DNA of 64,000 bases, taken from contig JAWCDE010000003.1 of the NCBI GenBank assembly GCA_038861395.1, forward strand, positions 3,536 to 67,535. Reading direction: 5' to 3'. This DNA is from Thermoproteota archaeon (GTDB lineage Archaea > Thermoproteota > EX4484-205 > JAAOZP01). Position numbers and translations under genes: made by a program. The notes under the pieces were generated by a model that saw only the letters and a program-made list of their open reading frames with translations, was not told the DNA's origin and made no database searches. This document shows, one piece after another, positions 11,937 to 51,472 of this stretch (position 1 is the first letter of the stretch; every line of letters starts with the position of its first letter).

Positions 11937-14900
11937 CTAGAGGTTTTCCACGAATTTTCTTGCAGGAAACTCGTGTATATTGCCTTGAGGATCTATAGTC
12001 ACGATGTTCTTATCCAGTCGGATCGCGGCTAGCAGGAGTGCTGAGCTTAAGATTCCGTCATCAGAATCCAGGCAAACAGCATCAACAGACCTAATACTTT
12101 CACAAAGCTTATCGGCAAGTATACTTATATCTCCAAAGTCGAGTCTTCTAACTTCAATAGTCGGGGGCCATACCCCCTCAGACCTAAGTCTCCTACGAAG
12201 TACCTTTAACTTGTCTCCCAACTCCTTCCTTGAATACGCTACCAGAAGCTGGGGGCGATATTTTTTAATAATATTAAAAGCATTTTCCACGGATTCTCCG
12301 ATTGCCATAGCTAAACTAAACTTTAAGGCAGACCATTCCAAGACCAGTTTCCTAACGTGCGTCACAACTTCGTGAACATTTGTCTCAATCAAGGATGCGT
12401 ATACAGATTTTGGCGACGTATACACATACACTGCATAATCCTCAATATCTTTTCTTACTTCAATTGTAGTATGGGCGTTGAACGGCCTGTTCCCTCCCCT
12501 ACCATAATTGAAGCTTATAAGATATGATATGTTACCGTTTTCATCAATTTTCTCTTCACGTTTAACCTCTGATATCACAAGCTCTATTGCAGTACTGCTT
12601 TGGGGAAGTCTTTCGTAAAGATAATTGATGAACATTTCAACTTTCTCCAAAGGAATCCTAAGAGGAACTCGTACTTTCCAAGTTTCTCCGCGGACGGCTT
12701 TTTCTTCAATCTTCCATTTTCTTAAAAGAGATGGCGTTGTTATTCTTGCAGCCTTTAGAGCAGGAGGTACTGAAGCAAATATGGCGGTCAATGACGCGAT
12801 TGTTATTAGGGAAAGCATGTCGATAGGAGAAGTCTTTACGTTAACGGGGAGAACGATATTCAGAATATCCAGTAATCTGAACATGATCATGCTCAATATG
12901 TAGCCGATTCCGCCCCCTATGAAGCCTAATACGCCTGCTTCAACAATGAAAAGACTGGAGATGTGGGTAGGGTTCAAACCGACTGATGAGAACACGAATA
13001 TTTCGTTTCTCCTCTCGTAAATCAGAGTATAGAACATTATTGCGATGTTCAATACCGTTATTGTTATTGGAAAGACTATTAGGGTGCCAAAGATTTCTAC
13101 GTAGCCTCCTCTAAAGTAATATGTCAAGCTTTCGGAACTGGGCAGGGTTGCTACAAAGTAGCCTCCCAAGGACGCTAAGCGTTTAGAAGCCTCTCTTGCT
13201 TGCATATTATTGTTAAACAGACAGTAGACTGCAGAAATACTCCCACCAAGTTTTTTAGAAGTTTGCACGTTCGCAATCAGAAGGTTGTTTCCTGGAACTG
13301 GTTGAGCCCCCGATTGCGAGCCGGGGGGAACATAGAAAGGCGAGAACTCGCTGCCATCAGGTTCCTTTATTTCCCTAATCAAATCACCATCAAATATGCC
13401 TACTACTGCTAGTCTTAACCCTTTGAAATATATTACATTGCCAACTTCTATCCCCAGGCTTTTTGCTAAATGCTTGCTTACAAGCACAGTATTGCTACTG
13501 TTGAAAAGCCTATCCATCGAGTTCTCTGGGTATGTAATGCCTTTAATAAAATGAAAAGAGGGATCGCCCACCGATATGCTCCTAATACCGTATATAGGCA
13601 CTCCATCTACGTAGTCTATGGCACCATATGCTATTGGGCTCACCACCTTGTAATCTAGTGACAATATCTCTTTCTGCGACCCTATGAAAATTAAATCCTC
13701 AGAAGTGAGAAACTCTGACGGCCTACTTACAATAGACATGGGCGGTTTATCCGATGGACATGTTTTCGCAACCGTAAGCGTATTTGTCGCGAGAGATGCT
13801 CTCATTGAGGTTAATGTCGACATTGCAATAGCCATCGTTATTATGGAAATCAGTGTTAACAAGGTTCTAAGCCTTCTTCTCTTTAGATTTCCGATAGAGT
13901 ATGATATCGCAATTGTTAATGCAGGTATTAATGAAACGCCTTTCTCACTCTTTACTTCTCCAAGGAAATAGGGCACTAGGAAAACCGCGAGTATTATGAA
14001 CATCGCTAAATATACTCCAATCATGAGTTCTTGAATGGGGGTCTTCGAAAAACCTGGAAAAGTATGGTAGGATGTGGTCATAAGTATTAAGAAACTGATT
14101 ATTGTAAACGTTGCGTATTGCTCTTTTTTCTCAATAAATATTGCGCCAATTGCTAAGGATAAAGCTACGACTATTGTGAAAACGAGAATCGCATTAGTAT
14201 AGGCTTCTCTCAAAATCCTTTGAATACTTCTGGTTACTTCCTCTCCGGTTACAATAGCTTCTTGTTGATAAGACAATATCTTAAGAGGGTTTGAAGAATT
14301 CAGGGCTTCCGCTCCTAAGGTAATTATCTGATTCAGCCTATAGGCTTCTAAGCCTATGTAAAACCCTAGGCTTCTTGCTTCTTCCACCATCTTCATAGCC
14401 AATTCTATAGTCTTGTTAACAAAAGGCTGGTTTGATCTAGCTTGGGTAAGAGCTGGCTGATCCAGATTGGTTTCACTATTTCTATACAGTTTAACCGGTT
14501 GTTCAACACTACCTATCTCAACCACATTTCTCTTACCCTCTATAGACGTGGAAACCAATAGATGTAACGGGGTATCAGCTGGAACCACTACAATATTTCC
14601 AGTGATGTTTAAAAGATTAAGAAGCGATAGGTTTTCTGAAGAATATTCGAGTATTAACCGTTCCTGAGTTTTATTAAGCATAAGGATTCTTGTCTCTTGA
14701 AGAGGTATTTTCAACGTAGAAATAGAAGGAACGGCTGCTAGAACTCTTGCAACGGCACCGGGACATAGTGTAATCGTAATGTTTCTCTTCTCTCCTAAGG
14801 ATAGTCTTCCTACGGAAATCTTTTGAGGAACATACATTTCTCTCTTGTTTAAGGACGGGCCCACTATTGTTATTTCAGCATTAGACGGTACTCCTACGAT

Positions 14901-17294
14901 TGTTTCATCTAACGCTTTAATGAAAAAATAACTCTCGTTTACAAATATTAGGAAAAACTGAGGTTCCCTAGGCTTCGGATTTAACGATATTCTTAATATG
15001 GAGGCAGGTTTAACGATGAACTGCTTAGAATTATTATCTATCATCCTCCCATCAATAAAATCTAACCTTGTTGAAACCTCAAGCACATGCTCAGTATCCG
15101 TGTAATAAGGTGCTTCAAAAACATATTTTTCGACAAGAATAGCACCGGAGGATAGAGACGGTAATTTTAATTCTACTTTTCTTTCATATAAAATCTTATT
15201 GAAGGTTAAATCCTTTATAGTCCAGTTCAGAACAACACTCAAAGGATCTTCAAAAGCGTCGTTTACGACCCAAAGACTAACCCTTACCGTAGCCCCAGGG
15301 TTAAAACATAAAGATGTAAGATTACTGTAGTAGTCGCCATCTACAAATATTATAACATGCACAGGATTGAACGCATTCTTTATCTCATTATACGTATTCT
15401 TTCTGACCCCGTAGTAATCTATTATCGAGCCACTAGCCTGAGGAAAGTAGTCTGTGAGCGGGAAGATGCTCACTCCCATCGAATAATTATTCTTAAGCAT
15501 CCTAGCCCTATCTATCGAGTGTCTTAAAACAACCGATTGATATTTTTGACTGAGATCTACCAGGCTAAATAAGTCATCAGGCCCTGTTAAACTAGTTGGA
15601 ATAGCTCCGTTGAAACCCTTGTCCTTAAAAGTTTGAGCAACTTGCCAAAGATACGATATTGTCGCATTACTCCAGAAAGGCGAGTTTAAACTGGGGAGTC
15701 CAATTGGACTAATTATATTCGGGAAGGTGCTTCTATACGAGATATAGCCTGTCCAACTGCCAGTACCCCAGCCGTAGTCAAGATACTCATCATAATCTCC
15801 AGAATAGGGTAGGACTATGATGTTCCTATTCAGGTCTTTAGCCAGAGTGCTCAGCTCATAATCTAAGTAAAGGTTGACCCCGTAGCCATAATACGGCGAT
15901 TTCTCGTTAAGCCAACCGGGTAAAGTATGGGGGCAGATAATTACTATCGAAGGATAATTGTATGTTAGCAATATCATTTCAATAAGCTGCTTCTTGACAG
16001 AGTCGGAGTATTTTTTAAAGCGGTCTAGAGCAGGGTAAGACCCTATCAGTGGAAAATCCAATTGAACAAGTAAGCCTTCTACGGATGTCGATTCATAAAA
16101 CTCTTTGGGCTCAACATGTGCGAAAGACCTTAAGAAGTTGACATTCGCATCCTTTAGAAGTCTTACAGTTTCAAACGTTTTCCGAGTTTCTAGCATCGGG
16201 CCGATTCTGGAAAAATATGCTCCTCCTCTTAGAAAAATGCTAGCGCCGTTAACTTTAATATACGACTTTTCCCTTGAAAAACCTCCTTCTAAAAATCTTA
16301 TTCCAAAAATGGTTTTGATAGAACCGGCGTACTGGTTATTTTGATATAGGCTAATATTGGCAAGATAAACAGCAGGGTCTCCAACATCCCATGGGAACCA
16401 GTAGGCGGGATCAGGTATTGAGGCCTCTAGCGTCCTCCATCCTGTTTCCTTCGGAGAAAGCCTTATTCTAAAGGATTGTTCTATTTCCGGTATACTGCTT
16501 GAGTTCAACCTCTTTATCCTCAGCCTTATGTTCAGATTTTCTTCAAAATCTTCTTTATTTTGAACCAAGATTCTGAACTTAACTAAAGCTGGATTTGAAT
16601 ACTTTTCCACATCAACTAGAACAAGATTTACGACAGGGCCCGTGGTTCCAACAAGCACGATATCTCTCCACACTCCGGTGAAAGCATCACGCATGTTTGG
16701 AAACACTTCTGAGAAAGAGTATGCCCCCGCTGGATATATTCTGGATTCGAAGGAACCTTGAATGGGAGATTCTATATGCATTGTTAAAACATTGTTTCCC
16801 TCCCTGTTGATAGCGTCATCCACATCGAAGAAAAAGGGGGAGAAGTAACTTGCGTGCTCTCCCAAATATATCCCATTAAGCCATACTTTTACAATACCCC
16901 AAACCCCGGAGAAAACGATCCTCAGCTTTTGACTCTTCATTCCAATAGGCACTTTAAACGATGTTCTAATCCATATGGAATTGTTTAAACTCGTTGCTTT
17001 AAGTAAGAAAGGTACGTTAATTTTACTCCATGAACTATCGTTGAAAAGAGTGCTATAATAAATGTTAATGTTTCCATTTTTAAAGGAGTCAACCTTGTAT
17101 CTGAATTCTCCGACAAGCCTTTCTCTAGAAAAATAGAAGTAATCAAAAGGTGAAAAATGTTGAGCAACTTCGTTCAAAAAGTTTTCATAAGGTTCTTTAG
17201 AGAAGGTTCTTAAAGCAGGCATGACCAAGGCGGCCAGTAAAATCGATATTGAAACTAGGGTTAGTGGAATTTCAATGCTTCTCTTCAACACCAT
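11937..17294 (-). CDS. giant membrane protein: N-terminal signal anchor, GH2-like (beta-mannosidase/galactosidase-like) ectodomain, FtsX/MacB-type permease TM module, C-terminal cytoplasmic domain of unknown function
   Basis: WIRTSFKVP...LRIVFSGVWGIVKVWLNGIYLGEHASYFSPFFFDVDDAINREGNNVLTMHIE matches the GH2 N-terminal sugar-binding domain. VNFLRSFAHVEPKEFYESTSVEGLLVQLDFPL matches the start of the GH2 TIM barrel. Later, LRTLLTLISIITMAIAMSTLTSMRASL and NEIFVFSSVGLNPTHISSLFIVEAGVLGFIGGGIGYILSMIMFRLL are FtsX-domain signatures. The final ~400 aa have no Walker motifs. Confidence 0.65.
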   Translation of the reverse strand: MVLKRSIEIPLTLVSISILLAALVMPALRTFSKEPYENFLNEVAQHFSPFDYFYFSRERLVGEFRYKVDSFKNGNINIYYSTLFNDSSWSKINVPFLLKATSLNNSIWIRTSFKVPIGMKSQKLRIVFSGVWGIVKVWLNGIYLGEHASYFSPFFFDVDDAINREGNNVLTMHIESPIQGSFESRIYPAGAYSFSEVFPNMRDAFTGVWRDIVLVGTTGPVVNLVLVDVEKYSNPALVKFRILVQNKEDFEENLNIRLRIKRLNSSSIPEIEQSFRIRLSPKETGWRTLEASIPDPAYWFPWDVGDPAVYLANISLYQNNQYAGSIKTIFGIRFLEGGFSREKSYIKVNGASIFLRGGAYFSRIGPMLETRKTFETVRLLKDANVNFLRSFAHVEPKEFYESTSVEGLLVQLDFPLIGSYPALDRFKKYSDSVKKQLIEMILLTYNYPSIVIICPHTLPGWLNEKSPYYGYGVNLYLDYELSTLAKDLNRNIIVLPYSGDYDEYLDYGWGTGSWTGYISYRSTFPNIISPIGLPSLNSPFWSNATISYLWQVAQTFKDKGFNGAIPTSLTGPDDLFSLVDLSQKYQSVVLRHSIDRARMLKNNYSMGVSIFPLTDYFPQASGSIIDYYGVRKNTYNEIKNAFNPVHVIIFVDGDYYSNLTSLCFNPGATVRVSLWVVNDAFEDPLSVVLNWTIKDLTFNKILYERKVELKLPSLSSGAILVEKYVFEAPYYTDTEHVLEVSTRLDFIDGRMIDNNSKQFIVKPASILRISLNPKPREPQFFLIFVNESYFFIKALDETIVGVPSNAEITIVGPSLNKREMYVPQKISVGRLSLGEKRNITITLCPGAVARVLAAVPSISTLKIPLQETRILMLNKTQERLILEYSSENLSLLNLLNITGNIVVVPADTPLHLLVSTSIEGKRNVVEIGSVEQPVKLYRNSETNLDQPALTQARSNQPFVNKTIELAMKMVEEARSLGFYIGLEAYRLNQIITLGAEALNSSNPLKILSYQQEAIVTGEEVTRSIQRILREAYTNAILVFTIVVALSLAIGAIFIEKKEQYATFTIISFLILMTTSYHTFPGFSKTPIQELMIGVYLAMFIILAVFLVPYFLGEVKSEKGVSLIPALTIAISYSIGNLKRRRLRTLLTLISIITMAIAMSTLTSMRASLATNTLTVAKTCPSDKPPMSIVSRPSEFLTSEDLIFIGSQKEILSLDYKVVSPIAYGAIDYVDGVPIYGIRSISVGDPSFHFIKGITYPENSMDRLFNSSNTVLVSKHLAKSLGIEVGNVIYFKGLRLAVVGIFDGDLIREIKEPDGSEFSPFYVPPGSQSGAQPVPGNNLLIANVQTSKKLGGSISAVYCLFNNNMQAREASKRLASLGGYFVATLPSSESLTYYFRGGYVEIFGTLIVFPITITVLNIAIMFYTLIYERRNEIFVFSSVGLNPTHISSLFIVEAGVLGFIGGGIGYILSMIMFRLLDILNIVLPVNVKTSPIDMLSLITIASLTAIFASVPPALKAARITTPSLLRKWKIEEKAVRGETWKVRVPLRIPLEKVEMFINYLYERLPQSSTAIELVISEVKREEKIDENGNISYLISFNYGRGGNRPFNAHTTIEVRKDIEDYAVYVYTSPKSVYASLIETNVHEVVTHVRKLVLEWSALKFSLAMAIGESVENAFNIIKKYRPQLLVAYSRKELGDKLKVLRRRLRSEGVWPPTIEVRRLDFGDISILADKLCESIRSVDAVCLDSDDGILSSALLLAAIRLDKNIVTIDPQGNIHEFPARKFVENL

Positions 17295-39580: not shown

Positions 39581-39794
39581 TTAAACTATCGCAGACTCAT
39601 AAAGACCATTTCAAATACAGCATATTGCCTCCAATCAACTTACTGACGAATACTAAGCTTTCTCGCAGATCTTGTACGCATTAGCATCCGACCTCACATA
39701 CAGCTCCTCCGAAAAGATCTTTCAATACTTGACTCATTAGATTCCCACAAATAGTTCCAAAGAAAAAAAGGGAAAAAAGTATAGGTTACAGGTT

Positions 39795-41081
39795 TTATGA
39801 AGCCTGTTCTCTTCCGCGAAGCTTCCGCCCTAATACTGTTCCCATAGCCAAGCCCGCCGCCAGAGAAACAGGAATCCCTATCATTGCTAACATCCTGTAT
39901 TGACTTGCTTCGCTCCCATATCTCTCAGCTTCATCCTTGTAACGCGATGCAGCTTCTTCAAGCCCTCTCAAATCCTCCAGGGCCTCATTAAACCTATTCA
40001 ATAGACTGCTCATGTTAGATTCCAATTGCGTAATATTGGCTCTCAATTGCCTATTCTCCTCCTCAAGCCGCCTTAGTTCGTTAATCATCTCCTCTAGTTG
40101 TTCATTAAGCTGCTCTTCCTCTTCGCCCACCAGCCTGAAAGCCAACGGCCTAGTGCTCTCAGCCCTAGCTAGTCTCGCAGTACCCGTGAAAACCGCTTTA
40201 AACAATAGCTCGCCACTAATGCTCATTCTTAAGTCGATCGTGAAACGACCCTCGCTGTCTGTAGTAGTGTTAGAAAGATGCAGCCAGGAAGAACCACTGT
40301 CCAAGCTGACGAATATCATTATCGTTGCTCTAATCTCAGGCGCAGGTCTAACACTACCACCCAACCTAACCTGCCTCGGCCCTGACGCCAGCGCGTAAAG
40401 GTCAACTGTAGGCCTCGTCTTAACGTAGAACTCAACCGTATTGCTTGTCGAAGACTTATACTCATTATTCCCAGCGAACTGAGCGTACGCCCTGTACAAC
40501 CCTAAAACATCAGTCGTGAACTCGTAGCGGAACCTCCCTTGAGAATCAGTATTAACCCTAGCTTGGAGAGTCGAGTCGTCAGGCTTTGTCACAACTATCG
40601 TGATTTCAACACTCATAGCCGGAGATATCGATCCCGTTAGGACCACCGGTTCGTTAACATACTCCTCTTTAGAAGCCTCTATCCTTAGACTCGTGGACCT
40701 CTTCTCCGGAGGCGGTGGAGAAGGCGTAGGCGTTGGCGGGGGCGCTGCCTTTAGATGCACATCTATCCTCATCGTTCCCTCTCCAGTTTTAGAAGCACTT
40801 CCGGAGTAACTGCCTTTAGACGCCTTCACGGTTATAGTTACAGGGATTGATGAAACGGTTAGAGTCACTGGACCATACTTACCGTCGTTCCCCGTGGAAG
40901 TGGAGGCAGAGGCTCCTCCACCAGAGATCGAAACGGAAGCACCTGCTGCAGGACTACCGTCAGGCATGTAGACATACCCCCATACAGCCACTGGAACCTG
41001 TGCTTTAACAATATTCGTGAGCGCAGGTGCAAGCATCCATAGGAGAATAACGCAAGCCAAAAGAATGGAGAGCTTCCTCAT
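39795..41081 (-). CDS. cell-surface protein: signal peptide, carboxypeptidase-regulatory-like beta-sandwich domains, Pro/Thr linker, C-terminal coiled coil and TM anchor
   Basis: VWGYVYMPDGSPAAGASVSISG (CarboxypepD_reg-like), APPPTPTPSPPPPEK, and a heptad-rich EEEEQLNEQLEEMINELRRLEEENRQLRANITQLESN followed by AMIGIPVSLAAGLAMGTVLG. The start overlaps the stop of the upstream C25 gene. Confidence 0.65.
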   Translation of the reverse strand: MRKLSILLACVILLWMLAPALTNIVKAQVPVAVWGYVYMPDGSPAAGASVSISGGGASASTSTGNDGKYGPVTLTVSSIPVTITVKASKGSYSGSASKTGEGTMRIDVHLKAAPPPTPTPSPPPPEKRSTSLRIEASKEEYVNEPVVLTGSISPAMSVEITIVVTKPDDSTLQARVNTDSQGRFRYEFTTDVLGLYRAYAQFAGNNEYKSSTSNTVEFYVKTRPTVDLYALASGPRQVRLGGSVRPAPEIRATIMIFVSLDSGSSWLHLSNTTTDSEGRFTIDLRMSISGELLFKAVFTGTARLARAESTRPLAFRLVGEEEEQLNEQLEEMINELRRLEEENRQLRANITQLESNMSSLLNRFNEALEDLRGLEEAASRYKDEAERYGSEASQYRMLAMIGIPVSLAAGLAMGTVLGRKLRGREQAS

Positions 41082-41084
41082 GTG

Positions 41085-44000
41085 TCACCACCCGGGAAAC
41101 TCCACGAGCCTGCGTGGGGAAGTCAGGTATACGAAGTATCCGAAACCCATCTCCATTGGAAAGTCGTCTGAAGGCGGGCTGACACCCGGAACATATCCCT
41201 TAAACTTTTGAGCAGTAGTATCCCAGCTAGCGATAAGAGTAGCCTCAGGCCCTATTGCCCTCGCAAGGCTACTGGCGGAGTATCCTGGCTCAGGATAGTA
41301 GATAAGAGAAATGAGGTTATACCTCCTCGAGAGCTCCCTGATCTCGAAGGGCCGCCCAAGCCACCATGATTCGAAGCCGCCTTCAGCAAAAGCCCTAACA
41401 TCGAGAAAATGCCAACCTAGCGAATGAGAGTATCCGTCTATTTCAATATGAACCGTCTCAACATCCTCGTCGTAAGCCCCATCAATGGGTGCAGGAATAT
41501 CAACCCAGTCTGAACCATCGATACGATACTGGACCATGACTATGTTTAGGCCTGCGTCGTTAGACACGGTGATGTTAACGCTTATAATGCCTTGGACAAT
41601 ATCCCTGTCCTCCACAAAGAGGCTGAAACCTGGTGCTGCCACAACCCTGAAAGTCGCATTCCTGTAAATGGGGACGTAGCCAGGTATGTCGGCCTCCGCC
41701 TCAATCTGGTAGTAGCCAACGGGATACGTGTCAAGTATATCGTAGAGCAAAGTGTAGTTACCATCACCAGCCACATCGTCCCCATGGGTCCCATCATCAT
41801 ACATCGTTAAGCCTGAGACCACTGTGCCATCAGGATAGTAGATGCTCGCCGTCACAGTAATCCCGGGGAGAGGATTGGTACCGTCGAAAAGGCTTGCAAC
41901 AGCCTTAACCGTATAGCCTGGGAGGTAGACTCCCCTGTCGGTGCTCACCTTGAGAACATAGGACGTAGTCAACCATTCGACAGCATTCTCAACCAGAGTG
42001 TTTCTATCGTTCTCGTAAAGATAGTGGAGCGGAAAAGCCACGTACACCACCCTGCCCCCGAAGCCCCAGTAGAGACCGTCGTAAACCACTACCGCAGAAT
42101 ATGGAGTACCCTGGTAGCGGGCGACCTCTTCACCGTTGTTCACAGGCTCAACACCGTCGGGGTAAGGAGGCATTGTTTCAAAGGAGAAAGTTGGAAGACT
42201 GTACACCACGGGGTGCTTGGCTATCGCCACTATCGTATTTTCATCAGCATCATCTACAAGCTGGTAAGCGTGGGCGACCCTCCGCATAAACTCATCTCTA
42301 TCATGATCCCACCCTATGTCCTCACCCTCCAACAGTAGTCTTCCACCGCTTTCGACGAATTGTATGAGGGTTTGCGCATCAACAGGGTCTACAGCCCACC
42401 TAAGGTATGTGCCTGTGTGCCATATAACCGCTTCTACATTCTCGTGTTGAAGAATCTCGAGAGGAGGACGACCATTCTCACTCTCTCTCCAAACAAACAC
42501 GTTGAAACCCATTGAGGTTAGAACGCTCTCAATCTCGCTAGGCCAAACTCCTTCATCCAAATAATAAGAACCATCGTCATCAACTACTAGGAGAATCGTG
42601 TTGGGCGAAAATTCCTGTAGAACCACGTTTTTCTCCATAACGACATGAGGATAGTAGAAAGCTACTCCGCCATAGAAGTCATCCTTAGAAGCTTCGATCA
42701 TGTAGGTTCCGTAAGGCAGGCCAACGAACTCATAGCACCCGTCGGTCTCAACCCCCTCATAGAGAAGCACCCCAGACGTGTAGTTGTAGAGTCTGATCAA
42801 AACGTCGGTAACAGCATGCCCATTTTCGTCTAAAGCGTAGCCGTAAAGCCTTGGAGTAGGCGGGGGAGGCGGAGGGCTTCCGGTACCTGTCAACGGTAGC
42901 ATCGGGTCTCCCAGGAGCGTACCATACTCAACCACGGTGTACCAGTCTAAGACCCATGACCTGCCGAATACACTCAAATAAACAATGATGGTATACGCAT
43001 GCATAAGACCTGGAGTGGGGACATAACCCTCGTCCTCCAGAGCCTTAAATAATGCTAGGAAGACCCAGTCTATCGCGCCGGCGAGACCCTCGGTTACATA
43101 GTACCCTCTATAACCATAGGCTACTTCAGCAGCCCCCAAGTAAGCTATTGCACCACCATCAGGGTGTATCATGAAGGCCTCGCTTATCGCAACATCCGTG
43201 TCTGCGAAGTCGTTGGTTAAACACGCCATCGTAGCCACAATAGGCGTGTTAAAGCCGTTTGTAAGCTGGTAGACGTCTGAATTAAGGAACCAACCTCCCT
43301 CCCCGAAATCCCATAGTCTTGTGTTACCGTGGCCTGCGAAGTTGACTATTCCGTAGCCATTATTAATCTCGTCTTTAACGTTAGTGGGGTTAAGGTTGCC
43401 AAGACCCTCGTACAGCTTCGTCCAAGAGAAGCTCGTTGGGAGCCAGTTTGCTTCCCAGTAGTCCTTCAGTATCTCGCCCTCTGGCCTTAGTCTATTTCCC
43501 AAAGTGACTGTACCCAGCAGGAGGATCCTTCTAAACCATGAGTTATCAGGATTATAGTTCATAAGCTTGTTAACTATCGCATTCGCCTCGCTTAATGTGC
43601 TTGCCGGCAGCCTACCGACTAGAATATCAGGATACCCGTCAACAACATCTTGCATCTCGCCGTAGACATGGTCGTTATCAGTGTCCCATGTGCCGTCTAA
43701 GTCAGCGTAGTAGAGGTCGCTCTCAATCCAAGGATTCTCCGCTAGGTCTTCAAACTCTGATGAATATACTCTCCTCGCAGGAACTTGGTCATCGTCGCCC
43801 AATATTATAACATACCAGGCACCGTAATTGTCTGCAGCGTCTTTCAGGAAGTTCCTTATTTTCTCAGGAGTATCGTAGCCATCGTAGTTTAAACTGATCC
43901 AGTCAACGGTACGTACCCACACGGTATACCCTTGCGAAGACTTCCAGCTTGCTAGAGTTTGAGCAGCTGTTTGGAGGGTTGTGGAGGTTATTATCACCAG

Positions 44001-44654
44001 AAAATCCTGTTGCAACGGTTCAACCTGATTGCTGAGATCCCTGTAATCCACCTTAATCTCCACCTTGGACGCGTAGGTCAAAGACCCTTTCTTCGGAACG
44101 TACTGGACTGGGAAGACCCTTACTATCACGTAGGTTACTCTTTCCCGAGTGGGAGGGTCTATGCCTTTCTTAACCTCGTATTCAAACATTTTCTCCGGAT
44201 ACGGTTTGTCAGACTCGTAGATGCTCGGATCCTCTTCGAACATTTCTACCTTAGGGCGTTCAGGCTTGGATGAGTCTAGTTTCACAGGCTTAGGGCCTGG
44301 GAGTAGCTTGTACTGTCCTTTGAGAGGCCTTGTTTCAATTTCGACTTTAACATTCCTCACCTCGCAGTTGTAGGGTAGTTTGAAAGTGTATACTTTGACT
44401 GGCACTATTGGTGCACCCGGTACTAGGTATAGTCTGGTGTCTGGCATTGAAACGGTGTAGTAATCCTTCACCATGCTTTTGCTTACTTTAGGCTGGTCGA
44501 ATTTTAAGACCGTGCCTTTGGTTAAGACTTCTTCGTCAGCGGGTTTGATGGAAATATACTCCCAAGGCGGGAGCGTATTCGATAATACGAGAACTACCAT
44601 AAGGGAGATGGTGAGCTGTTGCAAAATGTTTTCCAGAAGGGTCTTTTTTCCCAT
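41085..44654 (-). CDS. large secreted cysteine peptidase, family C25 (gingipain-like), with propeptide and multiple Ig/CarboxypepD_reg-like domains
   Basis: DFLVIITSTTLQTAAQTLASWKSSQGYTVWV...YVIILGDDDQVPARRVY...ILVGRLP...GIVNFAGHGNTRLW...IVATMACLTNDFA shows the C25 catalytic His (GHG) and Cys (ACL) in the expected order. RLYGYALDENGHAVTDVLIRLYNYTSG is CarboxypepD_reg-like. N-terminal signal anchor. Confidence 0.75.
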   Translation of the reverse strand: MGKKTLLENILQQLTISLMVVLVLSNTLPPWEYISIKPADEEVLTKGTVLKFDQPKVSKSMVKDYYTVSMPDTRLYLVPGAPIVPVKVYTFKLPYNCEVRNVKVEIETRPLKGQYKLLPGPKPVKLDSSKPERPKVEMFEEDPSIYESDKPYPEKMFEYEVKKGIDPPTRERVTYVIVRVFPVQYVPKKGSLTYASKVEIKVDYRDLSNQVEPLQQDFLVIITSTTLQTAAQTLASWKSSQGYTVWVRTVDWISLNYDGYDTPEKIRNFLKDAADNYGAWYVIILGDDDQVPARRVYSSEFEDLAENPWIESDLYYADLDGTWDTDNDHVYGEMQDVVDGYPDILVGRLPASTLSEANAIVNKLMNYNPDNSWFRRILLLGTVTLGNRLRPEGEILKDYWEANWLPTSFSWTKLYEGLGNLNPTNVKDEINNGYGIVNFAGHGNTRLWDFGEGGWFLNSDVYQLTNGFNTPIVATMACLTNDFADTDVAISEAFMIHPDGGAIAYLGAAEVAYGYRGYYVTEGLAGAIDWVFLALFKALEDEGYVPTPGLMHAYTIIVYLSVFGRSWVLDWYTVVEYGTLLGDPMLPLTGTGSPPPPPPTPRLYGYALDENGHAVTDVLIRLYNYTSGVLLYEGVETDGCYEFVGLPYGTYMIEASKDDFYGGVAFYYPHVVMEKNVVLQEFSPNTILLVVDDDGSYYLDEGVWPSEIESVLTSMGFNVFVWRESENGRPPLEILQHENVEAVIWHTGTYLRWAVDPVDAQTLIQFVESGGRLLLEGEDIGWDHDRDEFMRRVAHAYQLVDDADENTIVAIAKHPVVYSLPTFSFETMPPYPDGVEPVNNGEEVARYQGTPYSAVVVYDGLYWGFGGRVVYVAFPLHYLYENDRNTLVENAVEWLTTSYVLKVSTDRGVYLPGYTVKAVASLFDGTNPLPGITVTASIYYPDGTVVSGLTMYDDGTHGDDVAGDGNYTLLYDILDTYPVGYYQIEAEADIPGYVPIYRNATFRVVAAPGFSLFVEDRDIVQGIISVNITVSNDAGLNIVMVQYRIDGSDWVDIPAPIDGAYDEDVETVHIEIDGYSHSLGWHFLDVRAFAEGGFESWWLGRPFEIRELSRRYNLISLIYYPEPGYSASSLARAIGPEATLIASWDTTAQKFKGYVPGVSPPSDDFPMEMGFGYFVYLTSPRRLVEFPGW

Positions 44655-44917
44655 TTTTACTCGAGAATGGAGCGTTTTACCAGAATATATAGTTTATTTT
44701 TCTTTAAAAAAAAAGGAAATTCGACATTCAACGAATTTTTACTTCTTTTAAATAGGAAAAATACGACGTTTGACTATATAAGTCGAAGAGACGAAGATTT
44801 AAAAAAACTTATTTAAATAAATATTTAACTTATAATTCTCGTTTTTACTTTTTGCCATTATAAAAAATTATATAAGATGGGGCTTATCCTCTTATTTTTA
44901 AAGCTTTTTTAATTGCT
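44655..44917. promoter_or_regulatory. AT-rich divergent intergenic region with TATA/BRE-like elements
   Basis: 263 bp at >75% AT, containing several TTTAAA/TATATAAG boxes between divergent gene starts at 44654 and 44918. Confidence 0.4.
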
Positions 44918-45427
44918 TTAATTCTCTTCTGGGATGGATTCGACTATTAGTCTTGACTTCCCTGCGGTTATCTTTTTACTTTGGAAGAATCCTAGCGGGG
45001 CTTCGATAGCGTACTTGAAGCTTTCATTCGGCGCGTAGAGCCTGTTTGGATCCGGGTCCATCCTCATTATCTCTATTATTCTCCCATCAGCCTTGATGAA
45101 CGCTATGTCTAGGCTTGCCTCAACATTACGCATGTGGAAAAACACGTATCCTTCCTCTGGAAATATGAAGAGAATAAGAGTTTTCTCTACTACGCTTCTA
45201 CTTATGTTTTGGAAGCCTGCTGCACGCTCATCAGGCTCGTCTGCAATCCTTACCTCAAGCTCCAGAATCTTATCCTCATCGTTAACAATTTTTATTTTAG
45301 CCGTCTCCATCTTTCGGAACTCCCTGGTAACCCGCTGGTTAAGTGTTGAGGATATTTGGACTAGAACCAGCACTATGGCGGAGATTAGAAATAAGATTAG
45401 TATAGCCATCTGGCGTTTAACGTTCAT
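44918..45427 (-). CDS. DUF192 (COG1430) domain protein with N-terminal signal anchor
   Basis: KIVNDEDKILELEVRIADEPDERAAGFQN...LILFIFPEEGYVFFHMRNVEASLDIAFIKADGRIIEI matches the DUF192 pattern. Confidence 0.6.
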   Translation of the reverse strand: MNVKRQMAILILFLISAIVLVLVQISSTLNQRVTREFRKMETAKIKIVNDEDKILELEVRIADEPDERAAGFQNISRSVVEKTLILFIFPEEGYVFFHMRNVEASLDIAFIKADGRIIEIMRMDPDPNRLYAPNESFKYAIEAPLGFFQSKKITAGKSRLIVESIPEEN

Positions 45428-45614
45428 AGTAGAAGACGAAAAAACTTTGAATAAAAAGATTTTAGGATTAAAACTAACATCCGAAAAAGGTTTATACTGA
45501 TGTTGAGCAGGAACTTATTGTCTCTCCTAGTCTTGATGCGAATAATTGTTAAAAAGATTGTTAGCCTGCTCCTGAAAGCAGAAGTTTTATATTTTTAAAA
45601 CAAGAAGAAGCAGC

Positions 45615-46616
45615 ATGGAAAAGACGGTTTCAATCATGCTCATATTCTGCGTGATCGTAAACCTGACTCCTATTCTAAAATCAGTTTCATCACCCGGTGA
45701 AACAATACACCTATATTATGATTTTGAAAAACGCGAAGGCCCAACCTACGGATGGGTAGATGTTGACAGCGACGGCGACTACGATTATCGCATAGATATT
45801 TGTAATTGGAACATTAATAGTGCTGAAGGTGGCAGAATCGACATGATGCATAATAAAAGCACGAATACGCTTACGATAGAAACTAATCTCTGGGGGGCTC
45901 AGCCTCAGACTTATGTCAACGGTTATCCAGAAATATACGTTGGGAGAAAACCATGGGATAGACAGTATGCTAATGGTCTTGGGCTTAACTTCCCGTATAA
46001 AGTGTCTGACTTAACGTCTGGCACCGTATCCTTAACAGTGTCTTTTTCAATCGATCTTAAAGATCTCGATCCGAATATGAATTTCAACATAGCTGCAGAC
46101 GCGTGGTTGGTGGATGAAAGACGCGCATTCAACCCTGGCTCAGGGTTGTCGACACCCTATGTTGAAATCATGGTCTGGGTTTTTAGTCACAACCTAGGGC
46201 CCGCAGGGAGCAGGGTGGGCAGAGAGAATATGTGCGAAAGGGCTTGGGAGGTCTGGAGAAGCATTGGAAGAGACAACTCTACATACATCGCTATCATACC
46301 TGACGGTTGGAGCCTTTCAAAGGGTTCTATAAGCTATGATATAGCTGAAGTCATTAAAGTGGTTGAGAAATACGCTCCTTTTAACATATCCAACTACTAT
46401 CTGGTCGGCTGGGAATTGGGGACAGAATGGGGGACAAAGAACTCTAACGGTGTTGCACAATTCCAATGCACCATATCAAACTACACAGTGGCTGCAACCC
46501 CGGCAACCACTTCCACACCATCTTTAGAAGAACCCACGCCATATATTGTACTAGTAGTCATGCCAGCTGTTGCAGCCTTAATAATACTAATCTTCTCGAA
46601 AAGGAAAAGATCATAG
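45615..46616 (+). CDS. glycoside hydrolase family 12 endo-beta-1,4-glucanase-like, C-terminally membrane-anchored
   Basis: YVEIMVWVF matches the GH12 nucleophile motif YE[IL]MIW, and LVGWELGTEWG the GH12 acid/base region. The C-terminus has a Thr/Pro linker then TPYIVLVVMPAVAALIILIFSKRKRS. Confidence 0.75.
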   Translation: MEKTVSIMLIFCVIVNLTPILKSVSSPGETIHLYYDFEKREGPTYGWVDVDSDGDYDYRIDICNWNINSAEGGRIDMMHNKSTNTLTIETNLWGAQPQTYVNGYPEIYVGRKPWDRQYANGLGLNFPYKVSDLTSGTVSLTVSFSIDLKDLDPNMNFNIAADAWLVDERRAFNPGSGLSTPYVEIMVWVFSHNLGPAGSRVGRENMCERAWEVWRSIGRDNSTYIAIIPDGWSLSKGSISYDIAEVIKVVEKYAPFNISNYYLVGWELGTEWGTKNSNGVAQFQCTISNYTVAATPATTSTPSLEEPTPYIVLVVMPAVAALIILIFSKRKRS

Positions 46617-46643
46617 CTGGAGGCTATTATTTTTAGTTAAATT

Positions 46644-47906
46644 CTAGCATAGAGGGTTAACGATTCTTCCCATGAACAAGATGCTCCCTGTCTCCTTTTC
46701 CTGAATTATGAAGAAGAAGGGGCGGTCTGCTCTAAATACCTTAGTTTCTGGTACTGCGGTTATCCCTATTATTACTGCAGTTGCGGCTGCCGCCTCTGTC
46801 CCCTTCTCGTCAACCTTAACGTATGCCTGATGAATAACTTCGCTGATAAACAGGTCTCTTCTGCCAGTCATCCCTGAGAAGTCTGCTGCTCCGCTGAACG
46901 CGGTAGGCATTCCAAGACTGCTTAAAGTTTTCTGCATAGAGTATTTGGTTTCAAGCTCGAATTTAGGCAGGCAGATCTCATCCAGCTTCTCCTCCCTCAT
47001 TTCAGCCTTATACTCGTCCAGCCTCTCCAGCGTTAGTGAGGATTCGAATGCTTCAAGATCCTTCGGCAATATTATTATCATCGACACGTTCTCCCCCTTG
47101 TAGGGCAACTCTATGATCTGCGCATCTCCCGTATCAGCGTAGTTGAATCTTATTGTTTCATTAGGATGCATGCGCATCATCTGAACCTTTACAGTCCTGT
47201 CAGGCTCTATCCAGAAATCCTCCTCGCTTGTGAGAGATTCGTCGAAAGCTATTTTCCAGTCTCCTTTGAAGTATATCGCGTTGGTTAAAACAAGCCTCGT
47301 GTACTCGTCTAGAGCCCCAGGAGGAATCAGATCTTTAATCTTGTGATTAGTCTGCTCCTCTATGAATGTGTTAATCGTTTGCCGCGCTTCCTCAGCCTTA
47401 TGGATAAAGTCTAAAAGTGCTGCCTTTCCACCGTAATACTCCTCAACAGTTTTCAAATAGTCTTCTAGAAATGGATAATCTTTCTGAACCCAAAGAGCAT
47501 TCCCAGTCCTCAACTCGTAATCCTTAGAGGCTTCATTAATACGGTTATATATTGCAGCGAAGTTCGGCCTCAGAATATGGCTCTCAGGGAAGCCGAATAC
47601 TGTTTTCATCTCATCCGCGGTTTCCCCCCTCGCACCCTCATAGGTCATTGCAAGAGCAGAGAAGAGGCTGTAGGGCGAATAGAAAACATTGCCAGTTTCA
47701 GTCTTAACAAGCTCAGAGTAAAGCTTGAAGGCGAATTGATTATTAGCCCTCGCAACCTCCTGAATACCCTGTGGCGTCCAACCTGTTTCATTTGCCTTCG
47801 GAGGTTGAGTAGGCGGATAGGGAAAGAGGAAGAACGCGGCTATAGCTGGCACAAGGGTAATCATGATAAGCGCTATTCCAATCATCCATAATCTCTTCTT
47901 ACTCAT
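46644..47906 (-). CDS. serpin (serine protease inhibitor) with N-terminal membrane anchor
   Basis: Hinge GTEAAAATAVIIGITA, RCL, then FRADRPFFFIIQEKETGSILFMGRIVNP (serpin C-terminal signature). I chose the start at MSKKRLWMIGIALIMITLVPAIAAFF rather than the longer ORF-track extension to 48026. Confidence 0.85.
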   Translation of the reverse strand: MSKKRLWMIGIALIMITLVPAIAAFFLFPYPPTQPPKANETGWTPQGIQEVARANNQFAFKLYSELVKTETGNVFYSPYSLFSALAMTYEGARGETADEMKTVFGFPESHILRPNFAAIYNRINEASKDYELRTGNALWVQKDYPFLEDYLKTVEEYYGGKAALLDFIHKAEEARQTINTFIEEQTNHKIKDLIPPGALDEYTRLVLTNAIYFKGDWKIAFDESLTSEEDFWIEPDRTVKVQMMRMHPNETIRFNYADTGDAQIIELPYKGENVSMIIILPKDLEAFESSLTLERLDEYKAEMREEKLDEICLPKFELETKYSMQKTLSSLGMPTAFSGAADFSGMTGRRDLFISEVIHQAYVKVDEKGTEAAAATAVIIGITAVPETKVFRADRPFFFIIQEKETGSILFMGRIVNPLC

Positions 47907-48249
47907 AGTGATTAAAAACCTACGGCAGATGCTAATTAAAGGTTGTGCTGTTCGACTTATTTTAAAGAAAATATTTTGATTAGAGAACGTGCTGTACAAT
48001 TTTTCGAACAGGAATGAAATAAGCAAAAAGACCCTAAGAATGAGATATTCTTTTACAAGCTTTATTCCTCCAAAACCTTCTTAAGCGATTCTACGTCTAA
48101 CCTTATCTTCTTAAGCCTATTAACAAACCTCTTTTTAGCTTCATCTAGGCTGATCAATTCATACTAATTCTCGAAAATCGCTAAAAGAACCTGTAGGCTA
48201 TCGGTAAATCAAGAAAGCTTCAAACTCCTAAATTTAGGTTTTTAGGATC

Positions 48250-48540
48250 TTAGGTCTCTTTTAAAACTTCTACTTCGAGGTTTTCATAAACGCTTTTTAT
48301 TTTTTCATAATCCTCATCTAAAGTTAGGAGTTTCTCCTTATTATTGGCACAAACAGAAGCGATCAATATGTCAGCATCGCTTACTACTTTTCCAGCTTCC
48401 TTCAACCTAGCCCAGATATAGGAGGCTATTTTAGCATCCTCCAAAGTAAACGGAATTACGTTTAGCTCTGATATCAATGAAAGTATTACGTTAAACTCTC
48501 TATCCCTGCGGCTAGTAATATTAATGTATACATCAACCAT
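48250..48540 (-). CDS. PIN-domain protein (VapC-like), short, no adjacent antitoxin gene
   Basis: DADILIASVCANNKEKLLTLDEDYEKI matches the PIN C-terminal acidic motif. It is only 96 aa, with 52 bp to the upstream gene. Confidence 0.5.
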   Translation of the reverse strand: MVDVYINITSRRDREFNVILSLISELNVIPFTLEDAKIASYIWARLKEAGKVVSDADILIASVCANNKEKLLTLDEDYEKIKSVYENLEVEVLKET

Positions 48541-50911: not shown

Positions 50912-51472
50912 TTGGAAAGAAAAGTAGAGAACTCGGTGAAAGTATTGTTAATTCCTATTGGAAACATTAACCTTAATGAATTAATATTCCTCCCCGAGGA
51001 ACTTTCCAAAGTATTCAGGATCATACGCTTTACGATAAGTATGGACATTCTTAAACTACCGTTACACACTTATGATAGGGCTAGAAAACAGTATAATTCA
51101 ACACTCCTCTTGGAATACCTTGCCGCAGCCAAGCCTAAAGGCTACGACAAATATTTGGGAATAGCGGATGCAGATCTCTACGCAAGAGGATTAAACTTCG
51201 TATTCGGAGAAGCAATTCTAAACGGTGGGGAAGCTTTAATTTCACTTTACAGGTTAAGGCCAGAGTTTTACGGGGACCATCCTAACGAAAAACTATTCAA
51301 GGAAAGGATATTAAAGGAGGCTGTTCACGAACTGGGGCATACCTTCGGCCTAACGCACTGTGGAAATCCTGAGTGTGTAATGCATTTCAGTAACTCTATA
51401 ATGGATACCGATTATAAGAGCGCCCAACCCTGCTTAGCCTGCCAAACCAAGCTTTTTGGCAGGCTGCTTTAA
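50912..51472 (+). CDS. amzA: archaemetzincin (peptidase M54)
   Basis: HELGHTFGLTHCGNPECVMHFSNSIMDTDYKSAQPCLACQ carries HExxHxxGxxH plus the four-Cys second zinc site. Confidence 0.85.
   Translation: MERKVENSVKVLLIPIGNINLNELIFLPEELSKVFRIIRFTISMDILKLPLHTYDRARKQYNSTLLLEYLAAAKPKGYDKYLGIADADLYARGLNFVFGEAILNGGEALISLYRLRPEFYGDHPNEKLFKERILKEAVHELGHTFGLTHCGNPECVMHFSNSIMDTDYKSAQPCLACQTKLFGRLL

Follow-up and report, generated by a model that had tools for sequence, protein, structure and literature searches.

Do five neighbouring genes for surface proteins in a Thermoproteota archaeon, encoding a C25 peptidase, an anchored partner, a DUF192 protein, a glycoside hydrolase of family 12 (GH12) and a serpin, form one protease/inhibitor unit, or is a smaller set of them the functional unit? 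The genes lie in a stretch of 64,000 nucleotides (nt) of contig JAWCDE010000003.1 (GenBank assembly GCA_038861395.1, positions 3,536 to 67,535), which is called the window below. An earlier note on this DNA had read the cluster as a peptidase locus with a serpin that might inhibit the C25 peptidase across catalytic classes. All five open reading frames (ORFs) were found where that note had placed them, and their family assignments hold. The conserved unit is the C25 gene together with the gene of its partner, here called the anchor; the two form an operon on the minus strand. On balance, the region appears to hold a modular cargo/anchor operon with DUF192, GH12 and the serpin as neighbours, and not a single protease/inhibitor unit. 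The features that carry this reading are as follows (aa, amino acids; Ig, immunoglobulin).

41085..44654, minus strand: C25 peptidase, 1189 aa, secreted or N-terminally anchored (Pfam Peptidase_C25)
43329..43331, minus strand: codon of catalytic His442 (NFAGHGN), aligned with RgpB His211
43221..43223, minus strand: codon of catalytic Cys478 (TMACLT), aligned with RgpB Cys244
41088..41657, minus strand: C-terminal module of the C25 protein, about 190 aa (Ig-like plus 'RYNLIAL...GYFVYL..VE' domain), proposed docking module
39795..41081, minus strand: stalk (anchor) protein, 428 aa (Pfam, alignment, heptad and transmembrane analysis)
40752..40997, minus strand: anchor N-terminal domain (residues 29-110), more conserved than any other part of the protein, putative receptor of the cargo module
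39894..40139, minus strand: heptad coiled-coil stalk, residues 315-396 (register analysis, coiled-coil matches in the PDB)
39763..39778, minus strand: oligo-T tract (T6 and T7) just past the anchor stop codon (sequence read)

The C25 gene ends with TGA (41087-41085), CAC follows, and the anchor gene starts with ATG (41081-41079). The genes are thus separated by a spacer of 3 nt and do not share the overlap of stop and start codons described earlier; the coupling itself is tight, and stronger than had been claimed. The oligo-T tract is likely the archaeal terminator of the operon. Conservation of the pair, for which comparative genomics had been suggested as a check, was found throughout: the anchor gene lies directly downstream in every locus with a module-bearing C25 gene. 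In the comparison loci L002 and L007-L010 the two genes are 2-5 nt apart or overlap by 4-8 nt. For orthologues of the C25 protein with 47-55% identity, one of them from Infirmifilum sp., the partner gene invariably follows after 2-5 nt, and the other neighbours are unrelated. A metagenome scan gave the same picture, with an anchor gene directly downstream of all 15 C25 genes that encode the C-terminal module and of none of the 42 that lack it (each with at least 1.5 kb of downstream sequence). Among 172 fetched loci, the cargo module and the anchor N-terminal domain occur together in 24 of 24 cases, on the same strand, always adjacent and 71-120 nt apart.

In a further, 89%-identical C25 locus, L090:144-3971, the C25 match ends at residue 1022 and the anchor match begins at residue 165, 31 nt further on. 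This may be a deletion that removed the docking module and the anchor N-terminal domain together, or an assembly artefact.

The protein encoded upstream of the anchor varies in its catalytic part, which belongs to one of two C25 types, to the S8 subtilases or to a non-peptidase protein. The C-terminal module of the window's C25 protein is 42-47% identical to the C-termini of a different C25 type (L010), of two S8 subtilases and of a 1909-aa protein; C25 residues 1000-1189 match the subtilases and the 1909-aa protein at 42-46% identity (E-values 1e-35 to 1e-46). The anchors that follow these last three proteins (S8 subtilases of 1536 aa and 1637 aa and the 1909-aa protein, which contains DUF4350) match the window's anchor in the N-terminal domain only, with 54-71% identity. 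Across variable catalytic domains and variable stalks the two end modules remain together, which is taken as evidence that the modules are a docking pair. A full HMMER scan of 1.84 billion representatives returned 387 clusters with at least the terminal domain of the module. Of 20 proteins with the full module, five are C25 peptidases, three are S8 subtilases and one is a lyase-like (PcRGLX-like) protein.

The terminal domain of about 75 aa (RYNLIAL...GYFVYL; window 41088-41330, C25 residues ~1110-1189) belongs to no Pfam family. Several hundred representative clusters, whose lengths differ widely, contain it, often as two matched stretches. It probably stands for an undescribed domain family that reaches beyond the cargo/anchor system.

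One of the subtilase loci, L172:1465-8199, is a protease/anchor/inhibitor operon: the 1536-aa S8 protein with the same module is followed 5 nt downstream by a 505-aa anchor, and 1 nt further by a 199-aa inhibitor of the BsuPI family (PF12690, 8e-24).

These loci suggest, as a tentative proposal with a little under an even chance of being right, an undescribed surface-display system of uncultivated Thermoproteota. Its hydrolases (two C25 types, S8, lyase-like and others) would share the ~190-aa module, each would be translationally coupled to its own stalk, whose N-terminal domain would bind the module, and some loci would add a membrane-anchored inhibitor, such as BsuPI in L172 and perhaps the serpin of the window, as protection of the cell against the protease that it tethers. 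On the favoured reading of the region, the window's pair exemplifies a modular system of uncultivated Thermoproteota: other C25, S8 and non-peptidase cargos carry the same module, and each cargo gene is followed by an anchor gene for the same N-terminal domain. In the window, the secreted zymogen consists of a prodomain, the catalytic domain with His442 and Cys478, and accessory β-sandwich and GATase1-like domains. The stalk comprises a signal peptide, three β-sandwich domains, a coiled coil of about 80 residues, a transmembrane (TM) helix and a basic tail, and would present its N-terminal domain at the membrane-distal tip. There the last ~190 residues of the C25 protein are proposed to dock, which would keep the active protease on the cell surface. 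The tethered protease would probably digest external protein for nutrition or process envelope proteins.

The 1189-aa protein matches Peptidase_C25 (PF01364) over residues 220-588 and profile positions 2-374 (210.4 bits against a cutoff of 23; E-value 6e-62); weak Pfam matches to Propeptide_C25, CarboxypepD_reg and MG2 were also found. A TM or signal segment (residues 6-28) precedes a gingipain-like prodomain (44-206) and the catalytic domain (218-590). A Pro linker follows, then a CarboxypepD_reg domain (602-668), a GATase1/ThuA-like domain (686-895), an MG2/Ig domain (899-1004), an Ig domain (1010-1108) and the small terminal domain (1112-1185). The caspase-like α/β catalytic fold and the N-terminal prodomain that define the C25 family are both present. 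The canonical order of His and Cys noted earlier was borne out, and the catalytic residues are in place: NFAGHGN and MACL align with His211 and Cys244 of RgpB. Both residues are invariant in 10 full-length orthologues and present in 35 of 36 homologues. The protein is predicted to be a proteolytically active cysteine peptidase of the zymogen type. Asp163 of RgpB, the S1 specificity residue, aligns with Glu394 of the C25 protein (motif PEGEI), a residue present in 27 of the 36 homologues; the equivalence is drawn from the sequence alignment alone. The acidic residue at this position suggests a preference for basic P1 residues. A second catalytic activity in the middle domain was considered and rejected, because the fold search assigned it to a GATase1/ThuA-like domain without a conserved Cys. 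With relaxed thresholds, Pfam gave only weak hints of DUF4350 and DUF7428 for the middle and C-terminal parts.

The gingipains RgpB and Kgp of Porphyromonas gingivalis (MEROPS C25, clan CD) share with the window's protein the order of prodomain, catalytic domain and Ig-like domain and the order of the His/Cys dyad, and both are extracellular and surface-associated. The identity is 16-20%, however, and the window's protein lacks the C-terminal domain (CTD) of the type IX secretion system (T9SS) and anchoring by A-type lipopolysaccharide (A-LPS), carries additional GATase1-like and MG/Ig domains and has Glu instead of Asp at the position aligned with the acidic S1 residue. Its anchoring apparently depends on a separate stalk protein. 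The best NCBIfam matches of the protein are models of the T9SS sortase PorU (4e-20), and its gene is tightly coupled to that of a surface anchor, as might be expected of a PorU-like sortase or transpeptidase that cleaves a sorting signal and attaches surface proteins, for instance to the stalk. Such a role is nevertheless very improbable. The matches fall far below the cutoffs (NF033707, 71 bits against 420; NF052324, 51 against 450), the protein has a gingipain-type prodomain, and archaea have neither T9SS nor CTD signals. Since the cargo position is also taken by S8 subtilases and by a non-peptidase protein, the catalytic domain is interchangeable and not part of the anchoring machinery.

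Predicted secreted C25 peptidases have been described in sediment archaea (Thermoprofundales/MBG-D and Bathyarchaeia), where they are thought to feed protein fermentation and are highly expressed in metatranscriptomes (PMC6461988). A coupled anchor and a shared C-terminal module are not described in these reports, and most such C25 loci found here lack both. Literature searches likewise returned no description of the coupled anchor with the shared cargo module. Extracellular archaeal C25 peptidases are already known from genomes and metatranscriptomes, and what seems new is the coupled anchor with the shared module.

The anchor protein begins with a signal peptide (residues 4-22), followed by the conserved N-terminal CarboxypepD_reg/MG-like domain (29-110), a Pro/Thr linker, two Ig-like domains, the heptad coiled coil (315-396), a TM segment (398-416) and a basic tail. 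Pfam reports CarboxypepD_reg (9e-11) and Big_1/Big_3_5. The coiled coil and membrane anchor proposed in the earlier note were confirmed as one unbroken register of 11 heptads followed by the C-terminal TM segment. Hydrophobic residues occupy 15 of the 23 a/d positions; shuffled sequences had a mean of 7.9 and a maximum of 13, and none of 2000 reached 15. Alignment shows that long forms of the anchor have extra β-sandwich domains in place of the coiled coil. The anchor family is small (30 clusters), and all of its members are annotated as hypothetical.

SlaB of the Sulfolobales resembles the anchor in its signal peptide, two to three β-sandwich domains, coiled coil and C-terminal TM segment, and its gene likewise comes right after that of the protein it holds, in a bicistronic arrangement (PMC5744192). 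The order of a large protein followed by a stalk of this build, together with the bicistronic layout, mirrors slaA-slaB (PMC5744192) and would fit an S-layer of the SlaA/SlaB type in which the large protein forms the lattice and the C25 domain is vestigial. Of all the explanations weighed here this has the slightest chance of being correct. The catalytic dyad is strictly conserved together with the motifs around it, and the cargo type differs between loci. The anchor has no sequence similarity to SlaB detectable by phmmer and profile searches of all PDB chains, no comparison at HHpred level having been made; these searches found neither SlaB nor another informative match, only filamin Ig, C3 MG and coiled-coil matches. 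In addition, the Thermofilales, which carry orthologues (Infirmifilum), have been assigned a different, PySLP-like S-layer protein (10.64898/2026.08.21.746120). The anchor of a cargo/anchor operon differs from SlaB also in that it holds a C25, S8 or other enzyme and not a lattice former, and in that its long forms have β-sandwich domains in place of the coiled coil. Tetrabrachion with the protease STABLE in Staphylothermus marinus is a second likeness, a protease on a membrane-anchored coiled-coil stalk at an archaeal surface (PMC5744192). STABLE, however, is a subtilase on the S-layer stalk itself, with no known shared docking module and with genes that are not a dedicated pair, and the tetrabrachion coiled coil has right-handed undecad repeats, whereas the window's anchor has heptads.

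In the cohesin-dockerin system of cellulosomes, diverse catalytic domains carry one small terminal module, and the matching domain sits on a cell-anchored scaffold. The cargo/anchor pairs differ from it in their unrelated folds and in their one-to-one arrangement, each cargo having its own adjacent anchor gene, and the binding is here a proposal. All three systems, SlaA/SlaB, STABLE-tetrabrachion and cohesin-dockerin, are functional and not homologous analogues.

The C25-anchor region (window 40001-44000) has a G+C content of about 50%, compared with about 41% for the window. In the close relatives L002 and L010 this position is taken by another C25 type (27% identity) together with a long anchor that lacks the coiled coil, and the window's pair resembles orthologues of the Thermofilales type (~55%). 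These three observations suggest that a cassette was replaced or transferred at a fixed locus.

The neighbours of the operon are the following.

44655..44917, no strand: AT-rich spacer of 263 nt between DUF192 and C25 (sequence read)
44918..45427, minus strand: DUF192 protein, 169 aa, N-terminally anchored (Pfam 1e-17; PDB 3pjy 4e-4)
45615..46616, plus strand: GH12 protein, 333 aa, with signal peptide, Thr/Pro linker and C-terminal TM anchor (Pfam 2e-17, TM segments)
46644..47906, minus strand: serpin, 420 aa, with N-terminal membrane anchor, inhibitory type (Pfam 1e-124)
46743..46808, minus strand: reactive-centre loop of the serpin, P17 (E367) to P5', EKGTEAAAATAVIIGIT/AVPET, counted from the hinge

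The GH12 gene, between DUF192 and the serpin, is the sole one on the opposite strand; it converges with the serpin gene across a gap of 27 nt. An AT-rich divergent promoter had been placed between the peptidase pair and the other three genes. A divergent arrangement does exist, between DUF192 and GH12 (45428-45614), but DUF192 is co-directional with C25 and lies 263 nt upstream of it; the terminator of DUF192 and the promoter of C25 are likely both in this spacer. The DUF192 protein matches PF02643 with 64.3 bits against a curated cutoff of 27 (E-value 1e-17), and the glucanase matches Glyco_hydro_12 at profile positions 3-204 of 207 (64.3 bits, curated cutoff 27, E-value 2e-17). Hydrophobic segments at both termini of the GH12 protein and at the N-terminus of the DUF192 protein and of the serpin agree with the membrane anchoring or secretion noted before. 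Literature and PDB searches gave no functional lead for DUF192. DUF192 adjoins the serpin in L005 and L010, and GH12 intervenes in the window and in L002, where it is 77% identical at the same position; it is absent from L005 and L010. The DUF192 protein, the anchored GH12 and the anchored serpin appear to be separately transcribed neighbours whose adjacency is confined to this lineage. As families, DUF192, GH12 and inhibitory prokaryotic serpins are ordinary and already known.

The serpin (MEROPS I4) matches PF00079 at profile positions 2-370 (417 bits, E-value 1e-124) and SERPINB3/B4, SERPINB1 and conserpin at about 1e-80. The ORF of 460 aa is over-extended. Most of the closest clusters (30 of 34) have 420 aa and start with MSKKRLW (47906), and a TATA-like element, TTTAATTA, lies about 20 nt upstream of this position; the start was therefore set at M41 of the longer frame. 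The hinge reported earlier is present as EKGTEAAAATA and follows the P17-P9 pattern ExGTEAAAA for loop insertion, a motif defined in PMC8233489. Its E (P17), G, T, E, the following A-A and T (P8) are invariant in serpin alignment A2, and T (P8) is also found in 116 of 116 relatives. By its hinge, the serpin is of the inhibitory type. A count of 17 residues from P17, the P1 check called for in the earlier note, gives Thr383 as P1 and Ala384 as P1' (420-aa numbering), with IIGIT/A at P5-P1'. Neither Arg nor Lys occurs at any loop position from P8 to P5'. Among the 116 relatives, P4 is Met in 75%, P3 is variable (K/G/E/R/N/Q), P2 is Leu in 49%, P1 is Thr in 71% and P1' is Ala or Ser in 88%. The conserved positions are hydrophobic or small and therefore fit subtilisin- or chymotrypsin-like targets, which are the enzymes that the two archaeal serpins characterised so far inhibit (PMC8233489). 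Subtilases and other serine proteases thus seem likelier targets than the C25 peptidase. Scans of all six frames of the window for S8 and S1 active-site motifs found no serine protease gene nearby. Most likely the serpin shields the surface of the cell from serine proteases of the subtilisin or chymotrypsin type, made by the cell itself or by its neighbours.

Tk-serpin and Pnserpin are of the same conserved 'hub' type of archaeal serpins with the hinge ExGTEAAAA, a type for which intracellular housekeeping roles have been suggested (PMC8233489); the family of the window's serpin differs by its N-terminal membrane anchor and should face outward. The serpin is 100% identical to a protein of a metagenome-assembled genome labelled 'Thermoproteota archaeon', and its closest labelled relatives are from Candidatus Brockarchaeota and Bathyarchaeia. 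The view that archaeal serpins are rare does not stand, since more than 8000 homologues were found in metagenomic data, many of them archaeal. The family is large, with 63-68% identity across Thermoproteota, Woesearchaeota, Nanoarchaeota, Asgard archaea and Patescibacteria; for the anchored serpins of 420 aa in the window and in L011-L036, identities between Thermoproteota, DPANN archaea, Asgard archaea and Patescibacteria/Saccharibacteria are 60-68%. This conservation is far above the usual for these phyla and therefore indicates recent horizontal spread or very strong constraint.

That the serpin is the cognate cross-class inhibitor of the C25 peptidase, and as a suicide substrate traps enzyme that has strayed or been activated too early on the surface of its own cell, is unlikely. 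Peptidase and serpin do both face outward from the membrane, and the order serpin-DUF192-C25-anchor is shared by the window, L002 and L010 despite strong divergence of the C25 protein. The S8/anchor operon of L172 carries its inhibitor gene 1 nt downstream. Miropin of Tannerella forsythia, a surface-anchored bacterial serpin whose canonical P1 is likewise Thr, covalently inhibits the C25 peptidase Kgp (10.1101/2025.09.05.674453), so that inhibition of a C25 enzyme by a serpin can occur. Miropin, however, is a lipoprotein of a diderm bacterium that acts on the gingipain of another species through Lys368 of its loop; a variant with Ala in place of this Lys has no activity against gingipains (10.1101/2025.09.05.674453). 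The window's serpin has an N-terminal TM helix as its anchor and no basic loop residue, whereas the residue of the C25 protein that aligns with the S1 Asp of RgpB is acidic; reading the loop in this way presumes a C25 preference for basic residues. P3, the only loop position that is basic in relatives, varies freely (K/R/E/N/M/G) and is basic also in L005, which has no C25 gene. A basic P3 that tracks C25 was accordingly rejected: among the loci with C25, this residue is K in L002 and in L010 and G in the window, and L005, without C25, has R.

The distribution of the genes points the same way. None of 83 other C25 loci has the serpin, DUF192 or GH12 (eight full-length orthologues with 10 kb of upstream sequence included), and none of 72 other species-level serpin loci has C25 or any recurrent peptidase neighbour. 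L005 has the serpin and DUF192 and neither C25 nor anchor, a serpin gene linked to C25 was seen only in the window, L002 and L010, and the serpin here is a separate, convergent transcription unit. The suggestion of cross-class inhibition, which the earlier note had made to depend on conservation near proteases, thus loses most of its ground. The serpin is probably a mere neighbour of the C25 gene and not its dedicated inhibitor. Gene adjacency is insufficient for proposing a serpin target, and this serpin family is widespread and usually has no neighbouring protease.

Several points weigh against a cargo/anchor operon with unrelated neighbours. Docking of the module on the anchor domain is deduced from co-occurrence alone, and the match of Glu394 with RgpB Asp163 from a sequence alignment. 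The C25 protein has its own N-terminal hydrophobic helix, which, if uncleaved, could anchor it without the partner. After the S8 cargo in L171:7001-7984, an anchor-like protein of 327 aa has the conserved N-terminal domain and no evident C-terminal TM segment; it may be a soluble variant or a truncated gene call. As to the neighbours, BsuPI in L172 shows that inhibitors can belong to such S8/anchor loci. L002 and L010 keep the order of serpin, DUF192, C25 and anchor despite C25 catalytic parts of only 27% identity, and the four genes of L010 lie close together on one strand. The conserved order could reflect function rather than shared descent alone.

Other genes of the window are related to sugars: a GH2-like/FtsX fusion, GH20, SBP_bac_5, TrmB and GFO/IDH/MocA oxidoreductases. 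The fusion, an ORF of 1785 aa at 11937-17294 (minus strand) with N-terminal GH2-like sugar-binding and Ig domains and C-terminal MacB periplasmic-core and FtsX permease domains, is an unusual combination of a glycosidase-like protein with an ABC permease. Directly upstream of the serpin, at 48250-48540 (minus strand), lies a PIN-domain ORF of 96 aa that matches only profile positions 53-118 and is therefore probably truncated at its N-terminus; relatives have a VapB-type antitoxin gene at its position. An archaemetzincin without signal peptide (Peptidase_M54, 1e-28) is encoded at 50912-51472 (plus strand). Its position relative to the serpin is kept in L002 and L004, and it is probably unrelated. 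Scans of the window for tRNAs and Rfam families gave no matches.

For archaea, few cases are known of degradative enzymes held at the surface without systems of the sortase or T9SS type, and STABLE on tetrabrachion is the classic one. The module and the anchor domain would form a defined domain pair for binding tests and would offer thermostable parts for enzyme display. Being recognisable in sequence, they would allow surface-tethered hydrolases to be predicted in the archaea of hot springs and sediments that recycle protein and polysaccharide.

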